A stretch of 64,000 nucleotides of DNA, from NCBI GenBank assembly GCA_965228895.1, contig OZ245842.1:2903964-2967963 (forward strand), in the 5' to 3' direction. Below are positions 35,265 to 53,444 of the stretch, piece by piece; position 1 is the first letter of the stretch, and every line of letters begins with the position of its first letter. This DNA comes from Alphaproteobacteria bacterium. Lineage in GTDB: Bacteria > Pseudomonadota > Alphaproteobacteria > SP197. Below the pieces are notes generated by a model that did no database searches, was not told where the DNA came from, and worked only from the letters and a program-made list of their open reading frames with translations. The position numbers were made by a program, and so were the translations under genes.

Positions 35265-35352
35265 TTTCTGTCAATTGCTTCACCTGATCATCCGAGGCCG
35301 ATAGGATCTACGGCACGATCATACCTTCGCCCAACGGCGCTCGGGACCCCAC

Positions 35353-36438: not shown

Positions 36439-36523
36439 GACATCCTATCGCAGTCCGTCCCGTGCAACCGTCGCGCGCGTCTGTTAGGGTGCCGACGGCG
36501 CGCAGTTCATCCCTGGGTTAACC

Positions 36524-37822
36524 ATGAGTCAAACGATGGCGGCATCGCCAGCTGCGCGCAAAAGCAAGGTGACGCCGAAGACCGTCTTCGCCTGCGTCAT
36601 CGGCAACATCCTCGAATGGTACGACTTCACCGCCTACGGTTTTCTGGCGACGATCATCGGCGCCAGCTTCTTTCCGTCCGGCGATAGCTTCGCCTCGGTG
36701 CTCGCGGCGTTCGGCGCGCTTGCTGCGGGTTACGGCGCCAGACCGCTGGGCAGCATCATCGGCGGTCACCTGGGCGACCGCATCGGGCGCAAGCCGACCA
36801 TGATCCTGTGCATGACGACCATGGGTCTGTCGACCTTCGCCATCGGCCTCTTGCCGACCTATGAGCAGATCGGCGTCACGGCTGCCGTGCTGCTGGTCGC
36901 CATCCGCGTCATCCAGGGTCTCTCGGTGGCCGGCGAATACAGTTCGTCGTCGGTCCTGCTGGTCGAAAACGCCGAACCGCGCCGGCGCGGCTTTGTCGGC
37001 AGCTGGATTGCCTGCGCCATGATGGCCGGCTGTCTGCTGGGCTCCGGCATGGCGGCACTTTCCAGCGCCATCGTCGGCGACACCGCGATGGCGGCATGGG
37101 GCTGGCGTATCCCGTTTCTGTTCGGCGGCGTTATCGCCATCATCGGCATCGTGATCCGCCGGCGGCTCACCGAGTCGGCGGCCATGCCAGGCACCGACGA
37201 GGTCCTCGCCGTCCCGATCGTCGACGCGTTCAGGAACCACTGGCGCACGATCGTCACCATCGTCGGCATCAACATGCCGATTTCGGTCAGCTACTTCGTT
37301 CTTTTTGTCTACGCCGTCTCGTACCTGACCGACCAGATGCACTTCACGACGTCCCAGGCGATGGACATCAACACCGTCAGCCTGATCGCCATGACCCTGC
37401 TGATCCCGCTGACGGGCCTTGCGGCGGACCGTTTCGGGCGCAAGACCGTGCTCTACGTCTCACTGCTCGGCACCATCGTCGCCGGCTGGCCCGCCTGGTA
37501 CCTGATGCACACGCCGGAACTTGGCCTGGTCCTGGTTGGTCAGCTGGTCATCGCGTGCCTCAGCGCGGCGGGCTGGGCGTTGTCGGTTCCGATGATGGTC
37601 GAGCTGCTGCCGGCCAAGGTGCGCTGCACCGGCGGCGGCCTTGGCTACAACATCTGCCTCGCCCTGTTTGGCGGTACGACGCCGTTGATCGCCGCCTATC
37701 TGGTCGAGCGCACGGGCGATGACTTCACGCCGATCTACTACGTGATGATCGCCGCCGCGATCGCCTTCGTCTTCACACTGCGCATGCCGGAGATGGCGGG
37801 CAAACCGCTGCCGAGAGACTAG
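36524..37822 (+). CDS. MFS transporter of the metabolite:H+ symporter type (ProP/KgtP-like)
   Basis: 12 TM pattern. N-terminal ...NILEWYDFTAYGF... and GRKP motifs are characteristic of MHS family. Confidence 0.85.
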   Translation: MSQTMAASPAARKSKVTPKTVFACVIGNILEWYDFTAYGFLATIIGASFFPSGDSFASVLAAFGALAAGYGARPLGSIIGGHLGDRIGRKPTMILCMTTMGLSTFAIGLLPTYEQIGVTAAVLLVAIRVIQGLSVAGEYSSSSVLLVENAEPRRRGFVGSWIACAMMAGCLLGSGMAALSSAIVGDTAMAAWGWRIPFLFGGVIAIIGIVIRRRLTESAAMPGTDEVLAVPIVDAFRNHWRTIVTIVGINMPISVSYFVLFVYAVSYLTDQMHFTTSQAMDINTVSLIAMTLLIPLTGLAADRFGRKTVLYVSLLGTIVAGWPAWYLMHTPELGLVLVGQLVIACLSAAGWALSVPMMVELLPAKVRCTGGGLGYNICLALFGGTTPLIAAYLVERTGDDFTPIYYVMIAAAIAFVFTLRMPEMAGKPLPRD

Positions 37823-40254
37823 GCCCGCAACCTTTCGTTCTCCGGATCGAACGGCGACTCCTCGATGATCGTGACGCGGTGGCCGTTGCCCAGGATGTCC
37901 ATCTGAAGATCGGTGCCAATCTCCGAGACCTCCGGGCGGACCATGCCGAGCGCCAGAGACTTGCCGAGGCGGAAGCCGTAATTGCCGGAGGTCGCGCGGC
38001 CGACGACCTCGCCGTTCAGCGAGATCGGGTTGTTGCCGAGCGCGTCGGCATCGGTCACGTCGTGCACCTCCATGGTAACGAAGGTGTTCTGGAAACCCTT
38101 CTCCTGCCACTGCGACAACGCGTCGCGGCCGATGAACTCGCCCTTGTTCAAGTGAACGAAGCGGTGCAGGCCGGATTCAAGCGCGGCGTACTCGATCGAG
38201 AGTTCCTGGCCGACCATGCGGTAGGACTTCTCGACACGCATGGCTTCCATGGCGCGAATGCCGAAGGGTTTGATGCCCAGGTCCTCGCCCGCCGCCACGA
38301 CGGCGTCGAAGATGTGGTTCTGGTACTCCAGCGGATGGTGCAGCTCCCAGCCGAGCTCGCCGACAAAGTTCATGCGCAAGGCAAGCGTCGGCGCCAGGCC
38401 GACATCAATCCAGCGGCCCGACAGCCACTTGAAGCTGTCGGCAGAGAGGTCGTCACGGGTGATGCTCTGCAAAAGCTCACGCGACTTCGGACCGGCGACG
38501 ACCAGCACGCCCATCTGGTTGGTCAGATGGTCGAAACGGACCGAACCGTCCGACGGCATGTGCTTCTTGAGCCAGTCATGGTCGAGGCGCTGGAGCGCAC
38601 CGGCGGAGACGACATAAAACGAGTCCTCGGCTTCACGCATGATCGTGAACTCCGAATGGACGCCGCCACGCGTGTTGAGCGCGTGGACCAAGCCGACCCG
38701 GCCGATCTTCTTGGGCAGGCGGTTGGCAATCAGGCCGTCCAGAAAGGCCTCCGCGCCGGGGCCGGAAATGCGGCACTTGGCAAACGCTGTCATGTCTAAA
38801 ACACCAACGTTTTCATGCACATTGCGGACTTCGTTACCAACATGCTCGAACCACTTGGAACGGCGGAACGACCAATCGTCTTCCTGGGCCACGCCGGACG
38901 GGGCAAACCAGTTGGCGCGTTCCCAGCCGAACTTCTGGCCGAACACCGCGCCCATGCCCTTCAGCCGGTCGTAACAGGGTGCCTGGCGCAGCGGACGGGC
39001 GGCCTCGCGCTCTTCGTCGGGGTAATGGATGACGAAGACGTTGGCGTAGGCTTCCTCGTTCTTTTCGACCAGATAGGACTTCGTGCAGTAGTCGCCATAA
39101 CGCCGCGGGTCGACGCCCAGCATATCGATGGTCGGCTCGCCCTCGACGATCCATTCGGCGAGCTGCCAACCGGCGCCGCCGGCCGCGGTGATGCCGAAGC
39201 TGTGGCCTTCGTTGAGCCAGAAATTAGGCAGATCCCAGGCCGGACCGATGATCGGGTTGCCATCTGGCGTATAACAGATGGCGCCGTTATAGACCTGCTT
39301 GACGCCGACCTCGCCGAACGCGGGAACGCGATTGATGGCGGACTCGATATGCGGCTCCAGGCGCTCCAGGTCTTCCTGGAAGAGTTCGTACTCCATGTCG
39401 TCGGATGGGCCGTCGACATAACAGGCGGGCGCGCCTTTCTCGTAGGGGCCCAGGATCAAACCGCCGCGCTCCTCGCGCATGTACCAGGAGCCATCGGACT
39501 CACGCAGCACGCCCATCTCGGGCAGGCCGTCGGCCTTGCGTTTTTGGATTTCCGGATGCGGCTCGGTGACGATGTACTGATGCTCGACCGGAATGACCGG
39601 CACGTCGAGACCGACCATGGCACCGACCTGACGCGCGAAGCTGCCAGATGCCGTCACGACATGCTCGCAGGTGATATCGCCCTTGTCTGTCTTGACCAGC
39701 CACTCGCCTGCGGGCGTGCGCTCGATGCCGGTGACCGTGGTGTTGCGATAGATCTCCGCGCCGTTGTTGCGCGCACCAATGGCGAGCGCCTGGGTCAGAT
39801 CGGCCGGCTGAATGTAACCGTCCTCGGGATGCTGAATGGCGCCGACCAGGCCTTCGGTGTTGCACAGCGGCCAGACTTCCTTCACCTGATCGGGCGTCAG
39901 GAAGTTGACCTCGACACCGATGGTGTCGGCAACGCCGGCATATTGGCGGTACTCGTCCATGCGCGCCTGGTTCATGGCGAGCCGAATGTTGGAGACCTTG
40001 GCGAAGCCGACCCGCTGGCCGGTTTCCTCCTCCAGCTCCTGATAGAACCGCACGGCAAACTTGTGCACCTGGCCGACCGAATAGCTCATGTTGAAGAGCG
40101 GCAGGAGGCCGGCCGCGTGCCAGGTCGAGCCGGACGTCAGTTCCTTGCGTTCGACCAGGACGACATCGGACCAGCCTTTCTTGGCCAGGTGATAGAGGGT
40201 GCCGACGCCGACCACACCGCCACCGATAACAACGACCCGTGCATGGCTCTTCAT
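37819..40254 (-). CDS. Dimethylglycine/sarcosine dehydrogenase-family enzyme, second paralog
   Basis: Start ATG 40254. Same FAD plus GcvT-like architecture as 20184-22637. The two are clearly paralogous but divergent. The 3-prime end overlaps the convergent MFS gene by 4 nt. Confidence 0.9.
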   Translation of the reverse strand: MKSHARVVVIGGGVVGVGTLYHLAKKGWSDVVLVERKELTSGSTWHAAGLLPLFNMSYSVGQVHKFAVRFYQELEEETGQRVGFAKVSNIRLAMNQARMDEYRQYAGVADTIGVEVNFLTPDQVKEVWPLCNTEGLVGAIQHPEDGYIQPADLTQALAIGARNNGAEIYRNTTVTGIERTPAGEWLVKTDKGDITCEHVVTASGSFARQVGAMVGLDVPVIPVEHQYIVTEPHPEIQKRKADGLPEMGVLRESDGSWYMREERGGLILGPYEKGAPACYVDGPSDDMEYELFQEDLERLEPHIESAINRVPAFGEVGVKQVYNGAICYTPDGNPIIGPAWDLPNFWLNEGHSFGITAAGGAGWQLAEWIVEGEPTIDMLGVDPRRYGDYCTKSYLVEKNEEAYANVFVIHYPDEEREAARPLRQAPCYDRLKGMGAVFGQKFGWERANWFAPSGVAQEDDWSFRRSKWFEHVGNEVRNVHENVGVLDMTAFAKCRISGPGAEAFLDGLIANRLPKKIGRVGLVHALNTRGGVHSEFTIMREAEDSFYVVSAGALQRLDHDWLKKHMPSDGSVRFDHLTNQMGVLVVAGPKSRELLQSITRDDLSADSFKWLSGRWIDVGLAPTLALRMNFVGELGWELHHPLEYQNHIFDAVVAAGEDLGIKPFGIRAMEAMRVEKSYRMVGQELSIEYAALESGLHRFVHLNKGEFIGRDALSQWQEKGFQNTFVTMEVHDVTDADALGNNPISLNGEVVGRATSGNYGFRLGKSLALGMVRPEVSEIGTDLQMDILGNGHRVTIIEESPFDPENERLRA

Positions 40255-40493
40255 GAATGCCTCTCCCCTGCACCGCCCGCTCTGGAGCGGTTGGTCCTGT
40301 CGTAACAAAAGCCAGGGCGCTTCACTAGCGCCCGACCGGACCCGCCATTGTCACACAGGCGACACCGACTGTGCGTGTGCCGTCATGGAGAGGCCGATTC
40401 GGCGGCGAATCCGGCAGCGAGTGGTGATTCGGCTGTCGAAACGCGGGTCAATTTGCTTGGCGATAGGATGGGCCGGGCCTTAGGGTCCCCTCC

Positions 40494-42833
40494 ATGACAG
40501 CACAAGGTATTGGCGCGCCGGTCAGGCGCAAGGAAGATCGGCGGTTCCTGACCGGGCGCGGGAACTATGTCGGCGACTATCACGTTCCCGGCGCGCTGCA
40601 TCTGGCTTTTGTCAGGTCAGTGCACGCCCACGCCACCATCCGCGAGATCGACACGTCGGCGGCGCGATCCATGCCGGGCGTCGTCGACGTAATGACCGGC
40701 GACGATCTGCAAGCCGACGGCATCAAGCCGATCGCCAACCGGATCGGTTTTGACGGCAGCGACGGACGTCCGCTGCCGACCCTGCCCCGGCCCGCCCTGG
40801 TCCGCGATACCGTCCGCGTGGTCGGCGACGCGGTCGCCGTTGTCGTGGCCGAGACCAGCGATGCCGCCCATGACGCCGCCGAGGCGGTGCATGTCGACTA
40901 TGACGACATACCCGCCGTCGTCACCATGGACCAGGCCCGCACCGACGGCGCCCAGACGATCTGGGAAGACGCGCCGGGCAACCGCGCCTATGTCTGGTCA
41001 AGCGGCGACGCGGCGGCGAGCGACGACGCGTTCGCCAACGCTGCTCATGTCGTCGACCTGGACCTCGTCAACAACCGCATCACCGCCAACCCGATGGAGC
41101 CGCGCCTGGTGGTCGCCGAGCCGGATGCGACGACCGGCGGCATCATCTTCACGCTCGGCAGTCAGGCGCCACATCTCCTGCGCACGCGCCTCGCCGGTCT
41201 TCTGGATATGGTGGAATCGCAACTGCGCATCGTCTCGCCCGATTTCGGCGGCGGGTTCGGCATGCGCGGCTCGACCCCCTACCCCGAAGAAATCGTCGCA
41301 TGCTGGCTTGCCCGGCGCCTCGATCGCCCGGTGCGCTGGACGGGCACGCGGCACGAGGTGCTGATGACCGACACCCAGGCGCGCGACCACGAGACGCGGG
41401 CCGAACTGGCGCTAGACGGCGACGGCCGGTTTCTAGCGTTGCGCGTTCACACGAAAGCCAATCTGGGCGCCTATCTGATCGGCATCGGCGCGATGCTGCC
41501 GATCCATCTTTATGCGCCGCTGCTCGCCGGCATCTACCGGATCGGCGCCGTCGACTTGACCATTGAGGGCATCCTCACCAACACGGTACCGACAGCGCCT
41601 TATCGCGGCGCCGGCCGGCCGGAGGCTGCCTATGTCATCGAACGGCTCGCCGATGAGGCCGCGATCGCGACGGGCATCGACCGGGTCGAAATCAGGCGCC
41701 GCAACATGTACCGCGCAGAGGACCTGCCCGTCACCAACGTGAACGGGCTCCGGATCGACAGCGGCGACTTCGGCGCGGTGATGGACCGCGCGCTCGACAG
41801 CGCGGCGGTTTCGGATTTCGCGTCACGCCGGGCGCAATCGGAGGCGAGCGGCCGTCATCGCGGCCTGGGGTTTGCGACCTATATTGAATCGGCCGCCGAC
41901 GGCTCGGCGACCAGCTATGAGTCCGCGCGGCTGCGCGTCAATCCGACCGGCACCGCGACACTGCATGTCGGCACCCACAGTCACGGCCAGGGCCACGCGA
42001 CCGCGTTCGTGCAGATCGCGGCCGACCGATTGGGCCTGCCCATCGATGCCATCGAGCTGGCGTTCGGCGATACGGAGCGCGAGCCCTATGGCCTCGGCAC
42101 ATACGCGTCCCGCTCGCTGGTCTCGGCCGGCCCGGCCATCGTGGCGGCGACCGACAAGGTGATCGACAAGGGACGGCACATCGCGGCGCACCTGTTTGAG
42201 TCCGATGTCGACGAGGTCACTTTCGCCGACGGTATGTTCGCGGTCGCCGGCACCAACCGCCAGGCAAGCTTCGCCGAGATCGCGCATGCCGCCTATGTGC
42301 CGCACAACTTTCCCCATGACAGCCTGGAACCCGGCCTGGACGAAACCGCGTTCAACAAGGTCCAGGCCTCGACCTTCCCCAACGGTTGCCATGTCGCCGA
42401 AGTGGAGATCGACCCTGAGACCGGTGTCGTAACGCTTCTCGATTACACCTGCGTCGACGATATCGGCACGGTCATCAACCCGATGATCGCCGCGGGACAA
42501 AGCCACGGCGCAATCGCCCAGGGCGTCGGTCAGGCGCTGATGGAGCTGTGCCACTATCACCCGCAGACCGGCCAGTTCCAGTCGGCGACGTTCCTGGACT
42601 ACTGCATGCCGCGCGCCGGCGACCTGCCGATGATCGACTGGTCGACCCGGCCAGTGCCGACCGGCACCAACAGCCTAGGCGTCAAAGGCGTCGGAGAGAC
42701 CGGCACCATCGCCGCGCCGCCGGCGGTGATGAACGCGATCCTGGATGCGCTGCGCCCCATCGGCGTCACCCAACTGGATATGCCGGCGACGCCTGAGACG
42801 GTGTGGCGCGCCATCCAAAACGTGAACCGGTGA
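40494..42833 (+). CDS. Molybdopterin-binding large subunit of the xanthine dehydrogenase/CoxL family (form II, AYRGAGR motif)
   Basis: 779 aa. Active-site loop PYRGAGRPEA indicates form II, not bona fide CO dehydrogenase. No CoxS/CoxM-type subunit genes are adjacent. Confidence 0.85.
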   Translation: MTAQGIGAPVRRKEDRRFLTGRGNYVGDYHVPGALHLAFVRSVHAHATIREIDTSAARSMPGVVDVMTGDDLQADGIKPIANRIGFDGSDGRPLPTLPRPALVRDTVRVVGDAVAVVVAETSDAAHDAAEAVHVDYDDIPAVVTMDQARTDGAQTIWEDAPGNRAYVWSSGDAAASDDAFANAAHVVDLDLVNNRITANPMEPRLVVAEPDATTGGIIFTLGSQAPHLLRTRLAGLLDMVESQLRIVSPDFGGGFGMRGSTPYPEEIVACWLARRLDRPVRWTGTRHEVLMTDTQARDHETRAELALDGDGRFLALRVHTKANLGAYLIGIGAMLPIHLYAPLLAGIYRIGAVDLTIEGILTNTVPTAPYRGAGRPEAAYVIERLADEAAIATGIDRVEIRRRNMYRAEDLPVTNVNGLRIDSGDFGAVMDRALDSAAVSDFASRRAQSEASGRHRGLGFATYIESAADGSATSYESARLRVNPTGTATLHVGTHSHGQGHATAFVQIAADRLGLPIDAIELAFGDTEREPYGLGTYASRSLVSAGPAIVAATDKVIDKGRHIAAHLFESDVDEVTFADGMFAVAGTNRQASFAEIAHAAYVPHNFPHDSLEPGLDETAFNKVQASTFPNGCHVAEVEIDPETGVVTLLDYTCVDDIGTVINPMIAAGQSHGAIAQGVGQALMELCHYHPQTGQFQSATFLDYCMPRAGDLPMIDWSTRPVPTGTNSLGVKGVGETGTIAAPPAVMNAILDALRPIGVTQLDMPATPETVWRAIQNVNR

Positions 42834-42893
42834 AGCTCGATCACTATGGCGATTTGCGCCAAACTTGGGCGAGTTCGCTGACGGGAGGTGACC

Positions 42894-43403
42894 ATGACCG
42901 GCAAAGCTGACATCCGCGGCCTGCATCACAACGCCTACCGCTGCCGCGATGCCGAGGAGACACGGCAGTTCTATGAGGACTTCCTGGGTCTGGAACTGGC
43001 CGAGGCCTTCGAGATCGCGACGACGCAGACTGGCCGCGACACCCGTGTCATTCATATCTTCTTCGAAATGGGCGATGGGTCGTTCCTGGCCTTCTTCGAG
43101 GCGCCGGGCCAACCCTTCACGTTCAAGGACCAGCACGACTTCGACCTGCACATTGCTCTGGAGGTCAGCATGGAGACGCTGCACGCCATGTTCCAGAAGG
43201 GCAAGGACGCAGGCATCGAAACCCGCGGTATCTCCGACCATGGTTTCATTCACTCGATCTATTTCCGCGACCCCAATGGTTACGTCATCGAGCTGACCGC
43301 CAAGACCGAAACGCGCGATGCCGATGAATGGCAGCGCGTGAAAGGCGGCGCGCGGGCGGCGCTGGACAAGTGGACGGCGACAAAACCGGCGGACGCCGCC
43401 TGA
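42894..43403 (+). CDS. VOC/glyoxalase-family protein
   Basis: ATG 42894 follows GGGAGG at 42883-42888. VOC-like beta-alpha-beta-beta-beta modules. Confidence 0.7.
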   Translation: MTGKADIRGLHHNAYRCRDAEETRQFYEDFLGLELAEAFEIATTQTGRDTRVIHIFFEMGDGSFLAFFEAPGQPFTFKDQHDFDLHIALEVSMETLHAMFQKGKDAGIETRGISDHGFIHSIYFRDPNGYVIELTAKTETRDADEWQRVKGGARAALDKWTATKPADAA

Positions 43404-43435
43404 CATCCGCATGACGGCGCGGTAGTGTCCTCTCC

Positions 43436-44572
43436 ATGACTGAGGCCGCACGCAAAGCGATAGACGGCAACGGGCCGTTCTTCACCTTGCCGCCCCGCTG
43501 GTTCACCGACCCGGCAGTCCTGGCGCGCGAAAAAGAAACGATCTTCTACAAGAGCTGGCGCTATGTCGGGCACGAGAGCGATTTACCCGAACCCGGCAGT
43601 TACATCACCTGTCGAATCGTCGATCAGTCGATCTTCCTGATCCGCAACCGGGATGGCGACATCAAGGCCTTTCACAACGTCTGCCGCCATCGCGCCCATG
43701 AGCTGCTGCAGGGGCACGGTAAGATAAAGGCCGTTATCACCTGCCCCTATCATGCCTGGGCCTATGACAGCGACGGCACCCTAAGGTCAGCGCGCCTGTC
43801 AGACGGCGTGCAGGGCTTCGACACGACGGATTTCAGCCTGGTGCCCGTCCGCGTCGAATCGATGCTGGGCCTGTTGTTCGTCAATCTCGATCCCGACGCC
43901 GTGCCCTTCGCCGAGCAGTTCGCAGGGCTGGCCGATGAGATCACGTCGCTGGTCCCGACATTTCCTGACCTGGTCAAGGTCGAACAGCAGCGCACCCGAA
44001 ACGGCGGCGATGACGTCGTCGACCTGAAGGCCAACTGGAAGGTGCTGATGGACAATTGCAGCGAGTGTTATCACTGCGATCCCGCCCATCCGGCCTTCGT
44101 CGACCTGGTCGACATGGCGAGCTACACGATCGACGTTCGCGACATGTACACACGCCACGAGATGGCGTGCACGAAACCCGCCAACGCAGCCTATGACTAC
44201 CGCACTGACACGACGGTGACGAAAGCCGTTTTCTGGCACCTGTGGCCGAACATGACGCTGGGCGTCATGCCGGGCTCACCGAACTTCGATGTCTTTCTGT
44301 TCGAGCCCGTCGAGGTCGAATCGACGCGCCTGGACGGCGACAGCTTCCGGCTGCCGGACGGCGCGGGCGAAACGGACGCCGCTCGGGCGCGCTATGGTTC
44401 GAATGTTCTGTGGCCCGAGGACCGCGACCTCTGCGAGTCCGTCCAGCGTGGGCTTCATTCACGCGGCTATCAGCGCGGCCGCTTCATGGTCGACGATCAG
44501 CGCAGCGCCATCTCCGAACACGTGCCCGCGTTCTTCCACCACAAGGTCGCCGAGGCGCTCGGCGAGGTCTAA
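43436..44572 (+). CDS. Rieske [2Fe-2S] non-heme iron oxygenase alpha subunit (GbcA/Stc2/CntA-like N-demethylase family)
   Basis: Rieske motif CRHRAHEL...CPYHAW. The C-terminal catalytic domain carries the His ligand context (NCSECYHCDPAHP). No reductase gene is adjacent. Confidence 0.85.
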   Translation: MTEAARKAIDGNGPFFTLPPRWFTDPAVLAREKETIFYKSWRYVGHESDLPEPGSYITCRIVDQSIFLIRNRDGDIKAFHNVCRHRAHELLQGHGKIKAVITCPYHAWAYDSDGTLRSARLSDGVQGFDTTDFSLVPVRVESMLGLLFVNLDPDAVPFAEQFAGLADEITSLVPTFPDLVKVEQQRTRNGGDDVVDLKANWKVLMDNCSECYHCDPAHPAFVDLVDMASYTIDVRDMYTRHEMACTKPANAAYDYRTDTTVTKAVFWHLWPNMTLGVMPGSPNFDVFLFEPVEVESTRLDGDSFRLPDGAGETDAARARYGSNVLWPEDRDLCESVQRGLHSRGYQRGRFMVDDQRSAISEHVPAFFHHKVAEALGEV

Positions 44573-44877
44573 GACCTTAGATGCGCGCTAGAGGGCGTCA
44601 CCAAATGAGTGCTGGCAACACTCTCACGGACGGTCAGTTGGGAGGCCTTGTGGTTCCCATCCTGGCTTGCTCCGGCGGCTTGTGCATTTATGCCAGTTCG
44701 TGGGTGGGTTGTCGGACTGTTGCCCAAGTCCTGCATCATTGACTGGATCGGACGTACCCAATTGCATCTAGGACAAGTCTGGCGATCCCCTGCTTGAACA
44801 AGCTGAGGCAGGCGGCAGCGTGGGATGGCTATCTAGAATGTCGAGAGTGAGCGAAGTGCCGACGATAAAGACAGGTT

Positions 44878-45879
44878 TCAGCAGTCATCGGCTCCGCTGT
44901 TCAAACAACGCTCGATTTCCTCAACGATTTCGTTGACTTCCTCGTCGGAGAGTGAGTCTACCCAACTGCTGATGTGTACGTTCTTGTTGAACTCCAGAAG
45001 GTTCGAGGCTGCGTGCTCAATACTGACGTATAGCGCATCAACAACGGCGTCGTGGCTAGTCTGCTGAAAGAACACCACGCTATCATCAATCACGTACCTA
45101 ACGCTCGTACAGTTGCTCAGTTCCGCCACGCCAAAACTCGATTTTTGCAGTTGTGGTGACAGATCTTCCTTGAAGAACTTATCCAGTTCAACGAGGACGT
45201 ACGCCCTTGCTAACTCTGGGCAAACTTTCGCAGTCACATAGTGGTCGGCAGCATACTGGAAGATCACGAATACCGGGAAGAATCCGCCGTCACGATAGAC
45301 ATACATCACAGGGCCGTTCAGCACTTCTTCACAGTTCTCATCGCCATTACAGCCAAATCTCTCACTAAGCCTTTCAAAGACGTCACTCATCACGAGAATT
45401 CTCGAAACGTGACCGTCGTGATTCTGGCCCGCTGTCGCAGCCAACCACTCCCGGCGCAGGAACGCATAGAAATCGCCATACCCGTCAAATGTAATGTGAT
45501 TGAAACGATAACCATCGATGTAAGCGACCAAGTCGGTGTTCGCTTGCTGCTTCTGGCGAAAGAAGACGCGAACGTCAGCCGCCGTGTCACCAAATGCGCC
45601 CATCAGTGAGGACGTGATACCGGACCGATACTCTTCCGTCATCTCCGTGGTTCCTTCGACAGCGAAGTTGATACCGCCACGGTCGAACGACGCGGCTTCC
45701 GCCTCATCTTCTGCAGAGTTCGCGGCCTCAATAAACTCCACTGTTCCGGCCGCCAGGGAGAGCTGGGTGCCCGATCCAAAACCAAGTGAAACCACAAACA
45801 ATGCCAACAGAAACTGATTCGAAAGAGCCTTCGACACAGCAGCCTCTTGTTCTCTTGACCAATTCTCAATTGTTAGCAC
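44878..45879 (-). CDS. Hypothetical secreted/membrane-anchored protein in low-GC insertion
   Basis: 333 aa. N-terminal hydrophobic anchor FLLALFVVSLGFGSG. GC is about 50%, far below the window average. No recognised domain. Confidence 0.6.
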   Translation of the reverse strand: MLTIENWSREQEAAVSKALSNQFLLALFVVSLGFGSGTQLSLAAGTVEFIEAANSAEDEAEAASFDRGGINFAVEGTTEMTEEYRSGITSSLMGAFGDTAADVRVFFRQKQQANTDLVAYIDGYRFNHITFDGYGDFYAFLRREWLAATAGQNHDGHVSRILVMSDVFERLSERFGCNGDENCEEVLNGPVMYVYRDGGFFPVFVIFQYAADHYVTAKVCPELARAYVLVELDKFFKEDLSPQLQKSSFGVAELSNCTSVRYVIDDSVVFFQQTSHDAVVDALYVSIEHAASNLLEFNKNVHISSWVDSLSDEEVNEIVEEIERCLNSGADDC

Positions 45880-45972
45880 GAAGCGTGTTACGGTTTCGAT
45901 GTTCTTTGCTCCGAAGACCGGGATCTCATCGAAACCATCCAGCGCAGTTTTATTGACGCGGCTCTTGGTACA

Positions 45973-46040
45973 ACGCCATCTCCGAACACGTGCCCGCGTT
46001 TTTCCACCGCAAGGTCGCCGAGGCTGTCGGTGACGTCTGA
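45973..46040 (+). repeat. 68-bp imperfect direct repeat duplicating the 3-prime end (last 22 codons plus stop) of the Rieske oxygenase gene
   Basis: About 60 of 68 positions are identical to 44505-44572. It translates to NAISEHVPAFFHRKVAEAVGDV*, against SAISEHVPAFFHHKVAEALGEV* in the intact gene. Confidence 0.7.
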
Positions 46041-46043
46041 CGC

Positions 46044-46505
46044 CTAGACGGGAGCCATGCCCTTCTCGGCCAGTTCCTTCTTCGCCTCGTCCGTCTTGTC
46101 GAGGCCTTCCAGCCCCATGCCTTTCAGCACGCCGGGCGCCTTGGTGTACTGGATGTTTTGGTAGGTCGTGATCTCAACCCGGTTGCCCCAGGGGTCCAGG
46201 AAGTCCAGGAAACGGCCCGGCATGATATCGACACCCATCGCCTTCAGGGTCTCGCGGACGAGTTCCTTGTCGTCAACCGCGATTCCAAAATGTCGTTTAT
46301 CATCAGCCTCTTGAGAGCGACCTTTGGCAAAGTTGATGAACTGGTCTCCGAAATAGATGAAGGCGGCGTTTTCGCTCTTGGACTTAAGCTCGAAGTTTAA
46401 GAAGCCCCCGTAGAAGTCGAGCGCTTGGTCGATATCGCCGACCTCCAACGCGATGTGATTGATACCGACCGCGTTGGCCTTCTTCGCACCGTTTCCTGTC
46501 GCCAT
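46044..46505 (-). CDS. VOC/glyoxalase-family protein
   Basis: Start ATG 46505. GINHIALEV... and a second VOC module. GC slightly below local average. Confidence 0.7.
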   Translation of the reverse strand: MATGNGAKKANAVGINHIALEVGDIDQALDFYGGFLNFELKSKSENAAFIYFGDQFINFAKGRSQEADDKRHFGIAVDDKELVRETLKAMGVDIMPGRFLDFLDPWGNRVEITTYQNIQYTKAPGVLKGMGLEGLDKTDEAKKELAEKGMAPV

Positions 46506-46557
46506 GGCGTCCTCCTTGCCTATGTTCATCTAACGATGGGAGCGCCGTCGAACCGGT

Positions 46558-47016
46558 TCAAGACCATGTCTTGCCGCCCGCGATCTTGGCCTTGGCCGCC
46601 TGGACGAAACGGCTGGCGTCCGACGGCTGCTGGGGCAGGTCGTCGGCGATTGTGTGCCAGGGCACCTTGCCCTCGATGCCCGTGTGATAGAGGTCCGGCG
46701 GCCAGTCTTCCGGCCGGTCGAAGCTGCCCAGGGTGACGGCCGGGACCTTGTCATCAACGAGCCAGAAATCGAGCGACGTACCGCAGGCTCCGCAGAACCC
46801 CCGCCTGGCCCACGCCGACGACTGGTAATAGCGCGGCTCACCCTGGGTGTAGCGGAAGGCGCCCAGGGGGAACGTAGCAAAGACGCCGAAGATGCCGCCA
46901 AGCGCCTTCTGGCACATCTTGCAGTGACAGTAGGCGACCCATTCCGTCGCGGCATCGGCTTGCCAACGTATGGCGCCGCACAGACAGCCGCCGGTCACCG
47001 GCAAGACGCCCGTCAT
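46558..47016 (-). CDS. GFA-family zinc protein (third paralog)
   Basis: Start ATG 47016 in an ATGA overlap with the GST stop. Motifs CLCGAIRW...CHCKMCQ...CGACG. Confidence 0.8.
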   Translation of the reverse strand: MTGVLPVTGGCLCGAIRWQADAATEWVAYCHCKMCQKALGGIFGVFATFPLGAFRYTQGEPRYYQSSAWARRGFCGACGTSLDFWLVDDKVPAVTLGSFDRPEDWPPDLYHTGIEGKVPWHTIADDLPQQPSDASRFVQAAKAKIAGGKTWS

Positions 47017-47630
47017 CAGCCAAAGACCTTTTTGACTGCCGGGCGCGCCGCGGCATTGGCGACGACGCGCTGGGCGTTGGGAAACTCGTCCATGGTCGGA
47101 TGGCCCATGTCCGGGCTGAGCCATGTCGCCAACATGCGCACGTGAATGTCGGCGGCGGTGAAGCGATTGCCGACCAGCCAGTCGTCGCCGCCGATCGCCT
47201 CGTCGATCATGCCCCAGATCTCACGCAGCCGGATGCACGACCGCGCCCGTGCACTCGCGATGTGCTCTTCGCTCTCGCAGAAACGAAGCGGGTAGTAGGT
47301 GAGCTGATAGGCCATCTGCAGGGTGTTCGACATATAGACCAACCACTGCAAGAACGGCCCGCGCAAGGGATCGTCCGCGGCCGGCGCCAGGCCCGCTTCC
47401 GCGTGACGGTCGGTGAGAAACACGGTGATCGCCGAGGCCTCATGCATGGCGCCGCCATCGTAGATCAGAACGGGGACCCAACCGTTGGGATTGAGTTCCA
47501 GAAGTTCCGGCGAACGCGGCTCATTGATGTCGATGCTGGAATCGAGAAGCTCGTACGGGGCGCCGATTTCCTCGAGCACCGCGCGCGTGCCCATGGCGGC
47601 CGAGTGATCGGCGTAAAACAACTTGTACAT
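47016..47630 (-). CDS. Glutathione S-transferase
   Basis: GST N-terminal thioredoxin-like (MYKLFYADHSAAMGTRAVLEE...) and C-terminal helical domains. GGAGA SD. Confidence 0.85.
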   Translation of the reverse strand: MYKLFYADHSAAMGTRAVLEEIGAPYELLDSSIDINEPRSPELLELNPNGWVPVLIYDGGAMHEASAITVFLTDRHAEAGLAPAADDPLRGPFLQWLVYMSNTLQMAYQLTYYPLRFCESEEHIASARARSCIRLREIWGMIDEAIGGDDWLVGNRFTAADIHVRMLATWLSPDMGHPTMDEFPNAQRVVANAAARPAVKKVFG

Positions 47631-47648
47631 GGCGTGTCTCCGGAATGG

Positions 47649-48758
47649 CTAGGCCGTATAGACGGCAACGGGTTCGCCGAGCTTATCGGGTTTGGGCTGA
47701 ATGCCCAGCCCCGGCGTCTCGGGCGCTGTCATGGTGCCGTCGACCCAGTCCGGTTTGCCGTCCGCCAGGGAGACGTCGTGAAGTTCGGTCGCGTCCCACA
47801 TGGAGTGGCATAGCGCCGCCGGCGTCGACTGGGCGAGATGCAGAATGGCGGCGGTGGCGATCTCGGAACCGCCGGTATCCTGCAGCGACATGGCAAGCCC
47901 TGCTTGGGCAGCAACATCGCGCATGAGCCGGGCCTTGGTCAGACCGCCGACCTTACCGATCTTGATGTTGATGGCCGCGCATACATTGTCGGCGATGGCG
48001 CGCAACAGTACCGTCAGGTCATCCAGGCTTTCATCCAGCATGATCGGCTGCGAAACCATGCGACTGACGGCAAGGCATTGTTCATAGGTCGCGCAAGGCT
48101 GCTCGAACAGCAGCGTCAGACCGCGCCGGCGCGCCGCTTCCATGACAGCGACAGCATCGCCTTGCAGCCAACCGCCGTTGCAGTCGCACAACGCATCGTC
48201 GCCCATGGCAACAATGTCGGCGACCACATCGAGGCGTGCGATATCCTCCGTCACGTCGCCACTGAACTTGACGGAGTGTTTGCCGTAGCCGCGTTGGCGC
48301 AGGGTCTTGAGATTGGCCAGCGTCTCCTCGGGGCCAGCGGCCGACACGCTGCTCACCAGGTCGACCGCGCCATCGGCGCGTCCGCCCATGAGGTCACAGA
48401 CCGGCATGCCCGCGTCCTTGCCCAGGATATCCCAGCACGCCATGTCGATGGCCGTCTTGCCATAGGGATGCCCCGGTAGCGCGCGATCCATAACGTCGTT
48501 GATCCGTTCCGTATGACGGGGGTCGCGGCCCAGGATCGTCGGCGCGAGCTCATCAATGACGGCGCGCGCACCCTTGGCGAAGGCCGGCAGGTAGCTGGAG
48601 CCAAACGGACATGTCTCGCCCCACCCGGTGATACCAGCATCCGTCTCCAGTGCAACAATCGTGGTGTCGAGCGACGTCCATGTGCGGCCGCCGGACAACC
48701 GGTACGGCTTCGTCATCGGCAGATCGACCTGATAGACGCGTATGGCGATTATGCGCAT
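47649..48758 (-). CDS. Enolase-superfamily enzyme, MLE subgroup-like (candidate betaine/N-substituted amino acid racemase or epimerase, HpbD-like)
   Basis: Capping plus barrel domains. Strand-2 lysines (KHSVKFSG) and strand-6 lysine (IKIGKVGG). Metal-ligand acids (D..E..D). Start ATG 48758 preferred over TTG 48767. Confidence 0.8.
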   Translation of the reverse strand: MRIIAIRVYQVDLPMTKPYRLSGGRTWTSLDTTIVALETDAGITGWGETCPFGSSYLPAFAKGARAVIDELAPTILGRDPRHTERINDVMDRALPGHPYGKTAIDMACWDILGKDAGMPVCDLMGGRADGAVDLVSSVSAAGPEETLANLKTLRQRGYGKHSVKFSGDVTEDIARLDVVADIVAMGDDALCDCNGGWLQGDAVAVMEAARRRGLTLLFEQPCATYEQCLAVSRMVSQPIMLDESLDDLTVLLRAIADNVCAAINIKIGKVGGLTKARLMRDVAAQAGLAMSLQDTGGSEIATAAILHLAQSTPAALCHSMWDATELHDVSLADGKPDWVDGTMTAPETPGLGIQPKPDKLGEPVAVYTA

Positions 48759-48776
48759 GCGATCCAACCGGGGCGC

Positions 48777-50051
48777 TCAGGAACCACGCGCCATCGCCAT
48801 AAGCGTCTCGACGTAGCGATCGGCGAAGGCCTCGGCGGCGGCGCGGTCACGCATCGGTTCGTCGTAACCGAACGAAAGACACGCGCCCGCGGCTGTCGAG
48901 ACAATCGCGACCATGACGGGATGCAGGCCGTGGTTCTGCGACGGCATGATCAAGATACGGGATATGCCGACCTGTCGTGCGGACAAGCGATCGAGGTCAC
49001 CGACATCCGAGACACAGATGCCGCTCGCGAACACCTCGCTCGACGCGGCGATCTGGTCGGCCTGTGCGACCGTAGTTTCGAGCGGCACACGGGTCTCCAT
49101 CAGAAGCGCCGGTGGGCGGTTGTCGCGAAGCCTTTCACCCATGGCGCGCGCGAGTTCGATCAGGCTGAGATCGGCGTGCTCGGGACCGGCGAAGATGTTG
49201 ATGGAGGCCACAAACTCGCCGACGGTGGTTCGCGAAATTGCCGGTTCGCAATCGGCGCGCACATCGGTCGGTTCGACAATTCCTGTCCACGGCGTGTGCC
49301 CCGGCAACGCGGGTCCCGCACGCACCGCAGCGGCGCAAAAGCCCGCGGCCAGATGGATGCCCTCACCGTGCAATCGATCGTGCAACGCCTGAAGATCCCC
49401 GCTCGGGAGAACCCTGAGTAGGGCGCGCGGCTGTCGGTCTTTTGCCGGGGCGCCCCTATCGACCGGCCAGATGGCATCGTCTGGCCATTCGGCGAAGATG
49501 CCGGCCTCGCCTTTCAGTCCGGCTGCCGCCAGCGCGCGTTCGGGCGCGTCGGTCAGCGTCAGCGAAGCTCGGTCGAGGGCATCGGGATCACGGGCCAGAA
49601 GATCGATCTCGTTGAACACAACCAGCGCGGAACGCCCGTCGATGGCCGCGTGATTGGTCACCAAGATCAGCCAAACCGCCTTTCCCGACGCATCCGTCAG
49701 CACCACCAGCCGCCATGACGTCACGGCGACATCGTCTAAAATGGCCGCTTCACGCGCATAGACCGCCTCCATGTCGAACGGCTCGCCTATGGCCTCCGTC
49801 CTGATCTCAATGGTCTCGAACGGCACATCGCACACCCACCACAGATTGTTGCGCGTCTCGATACGCCCGCGCATGAGCGGATGGCGGCCGTGGATGATCT
49901 TGAGAGCGCGACGGAGATTGGCAACGTCCATCGGCCGCTGCAACTCCGCCATGGCGACCAGTTGCACAGCGCCATTGCAACGCCTTTTCAGCTCGACAAG
50001 CAACGCCTCCTGCGGGCCTAGCTCTCGCTCGAAGACGTCCGTATTTCTCAT
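48777..50051 (-). CDS. Stand-alone condensation/acyltransferase-domain protein (HxxxDG motif; PapA5/NRPS C-domain-like)
   Basis: 424 aa with HAAIDGRS, matching the catalytic HHxxxDG consensus of CAT-like acyltransferases. No adenylation or carrier-protein genes nearby. Confidence 0.6.
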   Translation of the reverse strand: MRNTDVFERELGPQEALLVELKRRCNGAVQLVAMAELQRPMDVANLRRALKIIHGRHPLMRGRIETRNNLWWVCDVPFETIEIRTEAIGEPFDMEAVYAREAAILDDVAVTSWRLVVLTDASGKAVWLILVTNHAAIDGRSALVVFNEIDLLARDPDALDRASLTLTDAPERALAAAGLKGEAGIFAEWPDDAIWPVDRGAPAKDRQPRALLRVLPSGDLQALHDRLHGEGIHLAAGFCAAAVRAGPALPGHTPWTGIVEPTDVRADCEPAISRTTVGEFVASINIFAGPEHADLSLIELARAMGERLRDNRPPALLMETRVPLETTVAQADQIAASSEVFASGICVSDVGDLDRLSARQVGISRILIMPSQNHGLHPVMVAIVSTAAGACLSFGYDEPMRDRAAAEAFADRYVETLMAMARGS

Positions 50052-50088
50052 GTTGAACCCGTCATTTCGCTTGTCGGTATTCTGCCTG

Positions 50089-50856
50089 CTAAGTCTTGAG
50101 CTTTGTCATCGCCTTATCGAACTCGCGCCGGTTGATCGGGCAGGTGCTGACCAAGTGCCCGTCGCAGACGACGTGAAACACGCCATAGGCCGACGGCGCA
50201 CGGCGGCGCACGTCTTTGGCCGACGTTAGTTCGACCTCATTGAAGGCAACTCCATAGTCGTCTGCGGCCTCGCGCAACATGGTGACGGTGTCGTCGATAT
50301 AGGGACATTGGTCTGAGCGCATGACCGTCAGGCCCTTGCCCAGGGCGGCGCGCTTCTTCTCCCAATTGCCGGTGAACGTCGGCAGGTCAACGTCGCCCCA
50401 AGACTTCACCATCAACGAGAACGTGGGCGGCGCTTCTTCGACGCAGGTGAAGCCGTGTTTTTCGAGGAAGCGCCGGCCGATCAGCCAGTTGCCTTCGCTC
50501 GTCACCATCGCAATGCCGGGGAAACCCGCGCGCTTCGCCTCGTTGACGGCGAGGTCCATAAGGTGGCCACTCAGGCCACTGCCCTTACTGCGCCCGACGA
50601 CCCACAGACAGTGGATGACAAGATAGTCCGCCGCCTCGATCGACCGCCACGCATAGGCGCCAGGGATCGTCTCGACAAACCCGCGGCCGCCATCCCGGAT
50701 CATGTGGATCTTCAGGCCTTCGGCGAAACGTTTGTCGAGCCACGCGCGTTTTCGTTTGTAGCCGTCAGCCTTGCGTCGGCTCATCAAACAGAAAAACCCA
50801 GTCTCGTCCACGTTGTCCGGACCGACCTCAACAATGTTGAACGCGCCGGCAGCCAT
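50089..50856 (-). CDS. GNAT N-acetyltransferase with C-terminal YoaP-like domain
   Basis: Start ATG 50856, 5 nt after the upstream gene stop. GNAT core, then a C-terminal CPYIDD...VFHVVCDG segment resembling the YoaP-like domain. Confidence 0.65.
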   Translation of the reverse strand: MAAGAFNIVEVGPDNVDETGFFCLMSRRKADGYKRKRAWLDKRFAEGLKIHMIRDGGRGFVETIPGAYAWRSIEAADYLVIHCLWVVGRSKGSGLSGHLMDLAVNEAKRAGFPGIAMVTSEGNWLIGRRFLEKHGFTCVEEAPPTFSLMVKSWGDVDLPTFTGNWEKKRAALGKGLTVMRSDQCPYIDDTVTMLREAADDYGVAFNEVELTSAKDVRRRAPSAYGVFHVVCDGHLVSTCPINRREFDKAMTKLKT

Positions 50857-50861
50857 CGCGG

Positions 50862-52901
50862 CTAAAGATCCTTGACCAACCGCAGGGCATCGTAGACCGC
50901 CGCATGAATGTTGCGACTGGCAACGCAATCGCCGATGCGAAAGAGCTGGAAGCGTCCGTCCGGGTTGGTGCGTAGGGCCTGCGGCTCGCCCGCGATCAAC
51001 GCGTCATAGTCGGTCTGGCCACGATTGACCGAAAGCTCCTTGAGTTCGCCATAGAGCCCGTCATTGGCGAGCGTGCCGTAATCGGAGACGACCTGATCGA
51101 CGACACGCTCTTCCTCCTCGTGGCTGTAGTCGTTGTGCAGGAGACAGACCAGATGACCGTTCTCGCGGTAGATCTGTTTGAGATGGTGGTCAGGCGTCAA
51201 CAGGACGTCCGACTTATAGAGGTTCTGCATGTGGGTCGGCAGGTTGGTGGCGCCAACCTCCTCGCCGATCATGCGCCCATTGGTCACGACTTCGACCAGC
51301 GCGCCGCGCTCGGCCAGGAACTCCGCACAGGACGGGCCCTGCTGCATGCCACTCTCGTCGTAGAGCAACACGTTCTTCGCAGGCTCGACCGCGCCGGTCA
51401 GAATGTCCCAGACACTGGCGGCCAGGTCGGCGCCATCGTAATAGCCGGTGTTGGGCCGCCCGCCGGTCGCCAGGATCACCACGTCCGGGTTCTCATTCAC
51501 AATGGCGTCACGGGTCGCTTCGGTGCCGTAGCGTTGGTCAATGCCCAGTTTCGTCACCTGCCCATCGAACCAGCGCACGATGCCCGATAGATTTTCGCGC
51601 CACGGTGCCTTGGCCGCGATGTTGATCTGACCGCCGGGTTGTTCAGCCATCTCGAACAGGATGACATCGTGACCGCGTTCGGCGGCGACGCGGGCCGCCT
51701 CCAGGCCACCTGGGCCTGCCCCGACCACGACCACCTTGCGCGCCGATGACGCCTTGTCGATGACATGGGGCATGGTCTGTTCGCGGCCGGTCGCGGCGTT
51801 GTACGCGCACAATGCCTCGCCGCCCATCGAGACCCGGTCGACACAATAGGTCGCGCCGACACACTGACGGATATCGTCGACGCGCCCTTCCACCAGTTTG
51901 TTGACGATATGCGGATCGGCGATGTGGGCTCGGGTCATGGCAACCATGTCGATATGCCCCTCGGCGATGGCGCGATCGGCCGTCGGCAGATCGCGGATTG
52001 CCGAGGCATGCAGAACAGGGATGTCGACCTGGGCCTTCACCGCGCTTGCCAGATGGAGAAACGGCGCCGGCGGAAAGCTCATGTTCGGCATCAGCATAGC
52101 GAGCCCCGACCAGTCGGTGCCGTGACTTTGATAGACAGACAAGAAGTCGATCAGGCCGGACTGGGCGAAACGTGTCGCGATTGTCATGCAGTCGGACTGA
52201 TCGAGGCCGCCTTCCAGAAGTTCGTCGCCGGACAGGCGCATGCCGACGATAAAGTCGTCGCCGACGGCCTCGCGGATCGCCTCGAACACCTCCAGGCCAA
52301 AGCGCATGCGGTTATCCAGGCTGCCACCGTAGCCGTCGGTCCGTTGGTTGACGCTGGGCGACAGAAAGGCATCGATCAGATGTTGCGCGGCGGCGATCAC
52401 CTCGACGCCATCGAGGCCGCCTTCCCGGCAACGCTGGGCCGCGCGCGCGTAGCACGCGATGATGCGGCGGATGTCCCAATCTTCGGCTTCCTTCGGAAAG
52501 CTGCGGTGCAGCGGCTCACGCACCGGCGACGGCGCCACCAGCGGCATCCAGTTGCCGCCGTCCCAACGCCCCCGCCGGCCTATATGGGTGATCTGGCACA
52601 TGGTCGCCGCACCATGGCTGTGCACCCGCTCGGCGAGCGCCTTCAGGTGCGGGATGACATCGTCGTGGGCCACCGATAGCTGGCGGAACGGCAGCGGCGA
52701 ATCCGGCGCGACCGACGACGAGCCGCCGAACATGGTAAGCGCAATGCCGCCCCTCGCTTTTTCCTCGTGATAGAGCTGGTAGCGCTCGCCCGGCATGCCA
52801 TCCTCGGCATAGGCCGGCGCGTGCGCCGTCGACATGATGCGGTTCCTGAGCGTCAGCCCCTTGATGGTCAGGGGTTTCAAAAGCGCGTCGTACTGGGCCA
52901 T
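50862..52901 (-). CDS. OYE-like FMN oxidoreductase fused to FAD/NAD(P)-binding domain, second DgcA-like paralog
   Basis: 679 aa, colinear with 27872-29914 and identical over long stretches (MAQ.DALLKPLTIK..., RIGDCVA.RNIHAA.YDA.RL). There is no adjacent dgcB/etf, so its electron-transfer partner is unknown. Confidence 0.85.
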   Translation of the reverse strand: MAQYDALLKPLTIKGLTLRNRIMSTAHAPAYAEDGMPGERYQLYHEEKARGGIALTMFGGSSSVAPDSPLPFRQLSVAHDDVIPHLKALAERVHSHGAATMCQITHIGRRGRWDGGNWMPLVAPSPVREPLHRSFPKEAEDWDIRRIIACYARAAQRCREGGLDGVEVIAAAQHLIDAFLSPSVNQRTDGYGGSLDNRMRFGLEVFEAIREAVGDDFIVGMRLSGDELLEGGLDQSDCMTIATRFAQSGLIDFLSVYQSHGTDWSGLAMLMPNMSFPPAPFLHLASAVKAQVDIPVLHASAIRDLPTADRAIAEGHIDMVAMTRAHIADPHIVNKLVEGRVDDIRQCVGATYCVDRVSMGGEALCAYNAATGREQTMPHVIDKASSARKVVVVGAGPGGLEAARVAAERGHDVILFEMAEQPGGQINIAAKAPWRENLSGIVRWFDGQVTKLGIDQRYGTEATRDAIVNENPDVVILATGGRPNTGYYDGADLAASVWDILTGAVEPAKNVLLYDESGMQQGPSCAEFLAERGALVEVVTNGRMIGEEVGATNLPTHMQNLYKSDVLLTPDHHLKQIYRENGHLVCLLHNDYSHEEEERVVDQVVSDYGTLANDGLYGELKELSVNRGQTDYDALIAGEPQALRTNPDGRFQLFRIGDCVASRNIHAAVYDALRLVKDL

Positions 52902-52903
52902 CG

Positions 52904-53431
52904 TCAGCGAGCCCTCTGTCCGACGGCTGCGGCCAAGGTGGTCATCGCATCGGCCTCAAGGCGATAGTGACGGTGTCCCAAGTCGATCATCCCGATTGCC
53001 TCGTAAAACTCTATCGCCGGAAGTCCTTCCTCGACAAACAGCTCGATACGAATCCAATCGCGCTCGACGGCAAGTCTCGCCACCTCTGCCATCAACTGCC
53101 GCGCGATGCCATGCTGGCGGTATTCTGGTCCGACATAGAGCGCATGAACAATGCCCATCGGCCGCCCCCTCCATCCGGCATAGCCGCGAAAGAACGAGAC
53201 AAAGCCGATAACCGTTCGATCGACCTCGGCCGCGAGAGCCTCAAAGAGAGGGTCGACACCGAATCCCGCGCGAGAAATTGCATCGACCGTAAGTTGTGCA
53301 TGGAAGCCGGGCCGATGGCTCTCGATCAGACAACACGTCAGGCGATGGAGCGCCTCGGCATCTTCGACACATGCCGGCCGCACGGAAGCCCGAACCAACG
53401 CGCGCTCCTGCGATCCGTGCACGGTCGGCAT
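52904..53431 (-). CDS. GNAT-family N-acetyltransferase
   Basis: Start ATG 53431. Acetyl-CoA-binding motif ...RQHGIARQLMAEVARLA.... Confidence 0.7.
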   Translation of the reverse strand: MPTVHGSQERALVRASVRPACVEDAEALHRLTCCLIESHRPGFHAQLTVDAISRAGFGVDPLFEALAAEVDRTVIGFVSFFRGYAGWRGRPMGIVHALYVGPEYRQHGIARQLMAEVARLAVERDWIRIELFVEEGLPAIEFYEAIGMIDLGHRHYRLEADAMTTLAAAVGQRAR

Positions 53432-53444
53432 CCGCCTCGCCAGC

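Follow-up and report, generated by a model that had tools for sequence, protein, structure and literature searches.

A foreign single-gene islet at the junction of convergent Rieske oxygenase and VOC/glyoxalase genes, bounded by an unevenly decayed duplication of the junction

In Escherichia coli, insertion of the e14 element at icd leaves a C-terminal pseudogene, icdC (Hill et al., 1989, cited in PMC13626634). For e14 and phage 21, the target gene is described as intact after integration, the insert supplying a slightly different replacement 3' end and the displaced native end persisting beyond the insert as a pseudogene fragment that covers the C-terminus; when the two copies recombine, a chimeric functional gene is restored (PMC13626634). 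Cis-mobilizable elements (CIMEs) are decayed integrative and conjugative elements (ICEs) or integrative and mobilizable elements (IMEs) still possessing the attachment (att) sites attL and attR without integration and transfer genes, an example being located at the 3' end of fda in streptococci (PMC5704250). Here we describe an islet in a 64,000-nucleotide stretch of an alphaproteobacterial chromosome (contig OZ245842.1 of assembly GCA_965228895.1; the whole stretch is called the window). The islet lies between a Rieske non-haem iron oxygenase gene and a convergent VOC/glyoxalase-family gene, carries one orphan gene and has the Rieske gene end on both sides. The best explanation, which we consider slightly more likely than not, is a strain-specific foreign islet with an element-borne copy of the gene junction, followed by a later exchange of haplotypes. 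As with e14 and phage 21 at icd, the target gene is intact, the insert would supply a slightly different replacement 3' end, and the displaced native end lies on the far side as a truncated 3' repeat; the site is unoccupied in relatives.

The features of the locus are listed below; L081 is the most closely related strain, in which the site is empty.

43436-44572, plus strand: Rieske non-haem iron oxygenase alpha-subunit gene, the target gene, intact, 378 aa (Pfam Rieske and Ring_hydroxyl_A).
44387-44468, plus strand: segment A of the intact Rieske gene, functional counterpart of the decayed segment A' (0/82 differences from L081; protein identical across the five close relatives L081-L085).
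44503-44588, plus strand: left repeat copy B, formed by the last 22 Rieske codons and the stop (to 44572), then about 16 nt of decayed junction homology (repeat search, alignment and blastn).
44509-46464, no strand: divergent haplotype tract holding the islet (mismatch map against L081).
44589-44877, no strand: non-coding stretch within the insert, 56% GC; scans for Rfam families, promoters, folds and short open reading frames gave nothing recognisable.
44878-45837, minus strand: cargo gene for a 319-aa acidic protein, an orphan (coding-like composition, GTG start, matching gene call on record).
45881-45965, plus strand: A', decayed fragment of the Rieske 3' region (pseudogene), homologous to 44387-44468.
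45971-46056, plus strand: right repeat copy B', displaced Rieske end (stop codon 46038-46040) that runs on into the native end of the VOC gene (6/70 differences from L081; spacing to the VOC stop as at empty sites).
46044-46505, minus strand: convergent VOC/glyoxalase-family gene, 153 aa, on the right flank and within the divergent tract (Pfam Glyoxalase; 153-aa form on record).

The 90%-identity cluster of the Rieske protein comprises six sequences, and the contigs of four of them were examined, together with the loci of close homologues of the neighbouring VOC/glyoxalase gene. The site was empty in eight independent relatives (L081, L082/L083, L084, L085, L089, L090, L091 and L092): the Rieske stop codon was 2-5 nt from the convergent VOC stop codon, or overlapped it by 4 nt, with nothing between the two genes. 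Every orthologous locus recovered that still holds the Rieske gene was empty, and no relative showed a conserved duplicated end with an intervening gene. Rieske orthologues of 378 aa were present in L081, L082/L083 and L089, and L081 was colinear with the window over positions 33444-44588 and 45971-50147. Because eight independent relatives have an empty site, the islet is an insertion, as proposed in the initial annotation of this DNA, placed exactly at the junction of the convergent Rieske and VOC/glyoxalase genes. Both flanking genes are intact, the left copy giving a working Rieske end and the right copy a working VOC end.

Gene content at this locus also varies in other ways. In L086 (positions 960-1143; also in L087 and L088; GCA_028277285.1) the Rieske gene is absent and two VOC/glyoxalase genes lie 185 nt apart; no Rieske homology was seen in the L086 gap by eye, the gap being unaligned. 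Judging from L086-L088, the Rieske gene itself is variable at the locus. The segment from the VOC gene to the GST gene is a hotspot of variation (L082 11880-13847, L083 2648-4738, L089 4051-5846): L082 and L083 have a HemolysinCabind gene in place of the GFA gene between VOC and GST, and L089 has transposase genes of the IS1595 and IS481 families there.

A repeat search of the window returned the pair 44503-44577 and 45971-46045 (75 nt at 87%), and a blastn comparison of the right copy with the 64-kb window matched 44503-44570 (E = 3.5e-21). Between 44503-44572 and 45971-46040, 62 of 70 positions were identical (8 mismatches), in good agreement with the estimate of about 60 of 68 first made for 44505-44572 and 45973-46040. 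The reading frame and stop codon are kept in the second copy, as had been noticed: the right copy translates in frame as NAISEHVPAFFHRKVAEAVGDV followed by a stop, and the intact Rieske gene end as SAISEHVPAFFHHKVAEALGEV followed by a stop. Blocks of 27 nt and of 15 nt match perfectly between the two repeats. In the left copy, weak homology to the native junction (9-10/16 nt) extends beyond the stop codon to about 44588.

When both copies were aligned with orthologues, the displaced copy was found to be the one contiguous with the native VOC gene: the right copy is in its native position relative to that gene, with the Rieske stop at 46040 and the VOC stop at 46044-46046. The Rieske C-terminus is ALGEV-stop here, as in the L082 allele, and AVGDV-stop in L081 and in the remnant. 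At the DNA level the Rieske 3' terminus reads GCGCTCGGCGAGGTCTAA in the left copy, and GCTGTCGG(C/T)GACGTCTGA in L081 and in the right copy. Since the intact gene end differs from that of the closest relative, the left Rieske end is a supplied replacement, in line with the original proposal. The change of AVGDV to ALGEV is conservative and the Rieske protein is full length; it gave a partial GbcA-like match, under the curated cut-off.

Two perfect palindromes were observed at the end of the left copy, one at 44548-44564 (CGCCGAG-GCG-CTCGGCG) and one at 44567-44579 (AGGTC-TAA-GACCT, around the TAA stop). Neither the right copy nor the relatives have the palindrome at 44548-44564 in perfect form, and the folding of the palindromes was not significant. 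Among 87 loci with Rieske homologues, second matches to the Rieske gene end were observed in three (L016, L056 and L006). Those of L016 and L056 were rejected as remnants and read, from their positions only, as tandem paralogues, and the L006 match was weak.

The 68-bp repeat originally described is present where it had been placed; it is, however, not a clean att-like unit. It forms part of a junction duplication of about 200 bp, comprising the Rieske 3' region, the stop codon and the first nucleotides beyond, the parts of which have decayed unevenly. Compared with 44387-44468, A' differs at 22/81 positions (about 72% identity; E = 5.5e-6) and lacks 1 nt; after it comes a deletion of 27 nt, flanked in the intact gene by two 8-nt ATCAGCGC repeats. 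The CESVQRGLxSxGY residues, conserved in most homologues examined and invariant in L081-L085, have been lost from A' (IETIQRSFIDAA), so that A' is a piece of an old pseudogene. Its identity to the clade members is 72-76% in every case, against 87-100% among the members themselves over this segment, and the background of the window is about 0-1% divergent from L081. As A' is more diverged than the clade members are from each other while the background divergence is near zero, A' was old and non-functional before the islet reached this lineage. In contrast with the 22/81 mismatches of A', B' has 6-8/70 (Fisher p 0.003 when compared with L081, 0.02 when compared with the left copy), and the boundary between A' and B' is sharp, at 45971-45973.

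The islet DNA is foreign in origin, on the basis of its composition, its lack of similarity to the relatives' loci and its orphan protein. It amounts to 1.29 kb of unique DNA, or 1,468 bp from repeat to repeat. The low GC content that first drew attention to it was confirmed: 52.6% in the insert against 62.8% in the window, with a GC content at third codon positions (GC3) of 0.61 in the cargo gene against 0.77-0.84 in neighbouring genes. The unique islet DNA showed no similarity to any relative's locus that was fetched, nor to the rest of the window. Insert DNA gave no blastn match among plasmids and phages, an exact 24-mer from A' was not found in metagenome contigs and an exact 24-mer from the spacer was not found in viral contigs. 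The spacer at 44589-44877 (about 290 nt) had no Rfam match, no predicted promoter and no significant fold z-score, and its short open reading frames had no credible Pfam match. The scanned region gave two terminator-like hits, both of them outside the spacer and no more than expected by chance.

The cargo gene has a coding-like composition (GC1/GC2/GC3 of 0.58/0.375/0.61). A GTG at 45837, preceded at 5 nt by AAGAGG, is its most likely start; with this start the protein has 319 aa, as in the gene call on record, and not the 333 aa of the maximal open reading frame. The protein had been called secreted or anchored, and the N-terminal hydrophobic segment on which this description depends was recovered: sequence analysis gave a pI of 4.4, 6 Cys and a single hydrophobic segment, at the N-terminus, which fits export or membrane anchoring, so that the protein is probably exported. 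Homologue searches returned the protein itself only, both in a word-indexed search of 5.8 billion clustered proteins and in a full HMMER search of 1.84 billion representatives. No match was found in Pfam, NCBIfam or PHROGs, none in plasmids and phages by tblastn, and none in scans of metagenome and viral contigs. The sole PADLOC match, to AbiEi, was marginal (E 0.01) and was disregarded. An AlphaFold2 model computed without an alignment had a pLDDT of 39 and was unusable. The VOC, GFA and GST genes lie upstream of the cargo gene and share its strand; since no terminator was predicted between these genes and the cargo gene, and no promoter of its own was found, transcription of the cargo gene by read-through from VOC-GFA-GST is plausible.

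No mobility function was detected at the locus. In agreement with the initial annotation, Pfam scans found no integrase or transposase among the approximately 45 open reading frames of the 64-kb window, and the L081 gene table lists no mobility genes. The islet carries one open reading frame, without a family match, and so differs from the e14 and phage 21 type, in which a recombinase gene lies beside the att site. The difference in size is equally marked: e14 is about 15 kb, has its own integrase and excises on SOS induction, whereas the islet has 1.3 kb, one orphan gene and no recombinase. The features of insertion sequences, transposons and miniature inverted-repeat transposable elements were also lacking, as there was no transposase and only one inverted repeat, of 14 nt and at chance level, and the direct repeats of 70-200 nt are unlike the short target-site duplications of such elements. 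That inverted repeat (44538-44551 and 44641-44654) was considered as a recombinase site and rejected (fold z-score -1.4). An integron gene cassette, which would end in an attC site and lie near an integron integrase with attI, finds no support: no structured element was detected, and no integrase was found in the window.

With CIMEs the islet shares the lack of integration and transfer genes, and like them it can be read as an integrase-less remnant of a site-specific element bounded by repeats. CIMEs, however, are known through intact ICEs or IMEs that share their att site, and no such element was found at the Rieske/VOC junction in any relative; therefore, the repeats are not assignable as att sites. 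Nor could the repeats be matched to the att sites of a known ICE or IME family: relatives have no element at this site, and the insert resembles nothing in the plasmid, phage, viral and metagenome collections.

The mismatch map against L081 indicated how the islet came to differ between two closely related strains. Over 44036-44508 there were 2 mismatches in 473 nt (0.4%); over 44509-44571 there were 6 (about 10%); over 46041-46464 there were 48 (11%); and over 46465-46695 there were 0. The VOC gene is 88.9% identical to that of L081 at the DNA level, compared with 99-100% further out. The haplotype that comprises the two repeat copies and the greater part of the VOC gene thus differs by about 10% from the shared background, and about 0.5 kb of divergent flanking sequence accompanies the islet. 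Because the islet is inside one divergent tract, it was gained here, or lost in L081, by homologous recombination and not by recent integration. In the simplest reading of the map, the latest step would be a single homologous exchange of a haplotype of about 2 kb that already carried the islet, a step that needs no integrase. Its direction may be either: the occupied allele was imported here, or it was replaced by an empty allele in the L081 lineage. No closer VOC allele that might identify a donor lineage was found in the databases, the best non-self match being that of L081 (94% protein identity).

The locus is like islets that are swapped by homologous recombination of their core flanks, in that it shows a single divergent tract in a near-identical background and is a hotspot of gene-content variation among relatives. 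Unlike this locus, such islets usually have no duplicated gene end, and the duplicated gene end implies that the original insertion had a distinct mechanism.

A 15-nt crossover core (CAAGGTCGCCGAGGC, 44542-44556 = 46010-46024) was considered and withdrawn. It assumed that the flanks were native to the lineage, the left copy being native to 44541 and foreign after 44557 and the right copy the reverse, and it relied on about 4 informative sites. Since 44509-46464 is one divergent tract, both copies, which lie within the imported tract, probably come from the same donor haplotype, and the core is unsafe.

Over 40000-52500 the window is a mosaic relative to L081, stretches of 99-100% identity being broken by patches of 89-95%, among them 43842-44035, 46696-47170 and 47270-47570; over window 50470-56384 the identity is 99.5%. 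This mosaic suggests either frequent homologous recombination in the population or strain switching in metagenome assemblies.

How the insertion first arose can be proposed as follows. A small circular DNA, or an integrative element, would have carried its own copy of the Rieske/VOC junction and would have integrated by a single reciprocal (Campbell-type) crossover within the last approximately 70 nt of the Rieske gene. A' and the stretch after the left stop would then be old, unconstrained DNA that came on the element and had decayed; the gene end in the left copy would be the element-borne replacement, kept intact by selection; and B' would be the host end, displaced more recently and decaying only since integration. 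The recombination genes of the element would since have gone, one orphan gene being left. Campbell-type integration of a junction-carrying circle predicts exactly the pattern observed, namely decay of A' and of the post-stop stretch, a functional replacement end and a better-kept B'.

Several points weigh against this proposal. No recombinase was found among the open reading frames of the window, no second copy of the element or of its parts was present in any collection searched, and no other element occupies the Rieske/VOC junction in any relative, so that site-specific integration is inferred from the anatomy of the locus. The decayed upstream portion, A', is extra with respect to the far-side fragment left by e14 or phage 21 at icd. 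It needs an additional assumption, such as an earlier imprecise excision or a capture of host DNA, because known elements of this kind need no homology upstream of the crossover. Identical blocks of 27 and 15 nt are present, but the crossover point is not placeable, because both copies lie in the imported tract. The contrast between A' and B' is moderate: the p value of 0.02 applies to the left copy, and the difference was not significant against L082, L084 and L085; moreover, it could arise through gene conversion, or through several rounds of homologous recombination with alleles of the empty site. Finally, the window and L081 are both metagenome assemblies, and the mosaic could in part reflect strain switching by the assembler; even then, islet and divergent haplotype would stay linked. 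Because of the missing recombinase, second copy and other occupant, and because of the extra assumption for A', we regard an origin of the islet by single-crossover integration of an element as about evenly balanced between true and false. Of the footprint of an integrated element that was first suggested, the insertion with its replacement end was recovered; a recombinase, a second copy and a related element were not, and the latest step was a homologous exchange.

The alternative that survives best, although we consider it unlikely, is a duplication without any element. About 200 bp of the junction would have been duplicated by repair, template switching or tandem duplication, with foreign DNA captured between the copies; each copy would then have lost its unneeded half, and B' would have been kept similar by gene conversion or by recombination with empty alleles, the usable homology of which ends at the 27-nt deletion. 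Decay of both unconstrained outer parts (27% mismatches in A', about 40% after the left stop) is what such a history would leave, recombination tracts are frequent in the clade, the identical blocks of B and B' are long enough for conversion, and no mobility gene is present. The event would, however, have to be older than the split of the clade members sampled, A' being 72-76% identical to all of them, although no relative sampled has the islet. Homogenisation of B' calls for an ad hoc mechanism, and new direct repeats of 200 bp are unstable, so that the islet would tend to go quickly.

It is very improbable that the islet is instead an active minimal cassette, a non-autonomous 1,468-bp unit with an attachment site that mimics the Rieske end, mobilised in trans by a recombinase encoded elsewhere. 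Such a cassette would fit the compactness of the unit, with its one gene and its intact replacement gene end, and also the perfectly identical blocks between the repeats and the presence/absence polymorphism between near-identical strains. Against this, no other copy or relative was found in any database searched, the flanking divergent tract explains the presence of the islet without a recombinase, and the short inverted repeat close to the repeat is no more than expected by chance.

We give hardly any credit to an ancestral arrangement, in which an islet already carried by the common ancestor was precisely lost several times in the sampled relatives through recombination between the repeats. 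Such recombination would restore an intact chimeric gene end, and the L081 end is like the left copy up to 44556 and like the right copy after it; however, at least 4-5 independent precise losses would be needed, including some in distant relatives with the 4-nt gene overlap, and the composition of the islet is foreign. An assembly artefact, in which the apparent insertion came from a mis-join, or from a consensus chimeric between strains, when the chromosome was assembled from a metagenome, is just as improbable: the source is a 5.53-Mb contig represented in sequence archives only, and the mosaic identity to L081 could be due to haplotype switching by the assembler, but the repeat copies have diverged (87%) and one has pseudogene-type indels where an assembly duplication would give identical copies, the insert holds a long coding-like open reading frame with a ribosome-binding site, and both flanking genes are intact.

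The surroundings of the islet were also surveyed. Neighbouring genes at the locus suggest methylated-amine catabolism: dimethylglycine-dehydrogenase-like and MTTB genes, the partial GbcA-like match of the Rieske protein and, in L090, a BCCT transporter. In the analyses made here, nothing ties the cargo gene to methylated-amine chemistry. The amine-catabolism genes of the region are heavily duplicated, with two dimethylglycine-dehydrogenase-like genes (20184-22820 and 37819-40254); paralogous Oxidored_FMN/Pyr_redox_2 genes lie 23 kb apart (27872-29914 and 50862-52901; about 67% DNA identity), and three GFA-family genes are present (16586-17008, 30130-30630 and 46558-47019).

A second low-GC patch covers 30713-31084 and 31147-31686 (minimum 51.5%). 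It contains a 123-aa open reading frame with a lipoprotein-like signal (…LAVSGCAG…) and a 179-aa hydrophobic one, neither with a Pfam match. A gene at 12358-14610, for a 750-aa protein with TPR and glycosyltransferase family 41 (O-GlcNAc-transferase-like) domains, is situated where GC is lowest in the left half of the window (minimum 51.7%) and is possibly another acquired gene. An MT-A70-family adenine methyltransferase gene (17939-18604) adjoins a low-GC patch at 17701-18100 (54.5%), and no restriction partner for it was found among the open reading frames scanned. No flanking gene-end repeats were found at the other low-GC patches of the window. At 50148-50469, within a hypothetical gene, 322 nt are present in the window and absent in L081; the maximal open reading frame of this gene is 279 aa here, 253 aa in L082 and 140 aa in L081, and L081 probably has a deletion at this position.

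In one respect the locus is a further case of a known class, a gene-end duplication at an integration site with an integrase-less remnant, and its footprint is otherwise fairly ordinary. The cargo protein, for which about 15 billion predicted proteins contain no relative, draws interest chiefly as an example of an orphan gene whose point of entry can be traced. If the trans-mobilised cassette were true, the islet would be a minimal gene-end-mimicking cassette system outside integrons, carrying an orphan gene for a predicted exported protein. On the explanation that we favour, of a foreign islet with an element-borne junction copy and a later haplotype exchange, the uneven decay of the duplicated junction would be a record of the order of events. 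The locus offers a clean, bounded case in which a single orphan gene entered the chromosome while sparing two tightly packed convergent genes, and in which an islet appears to have spread, or to have been lost, between near-identical strains by ordinary homologous recombination.

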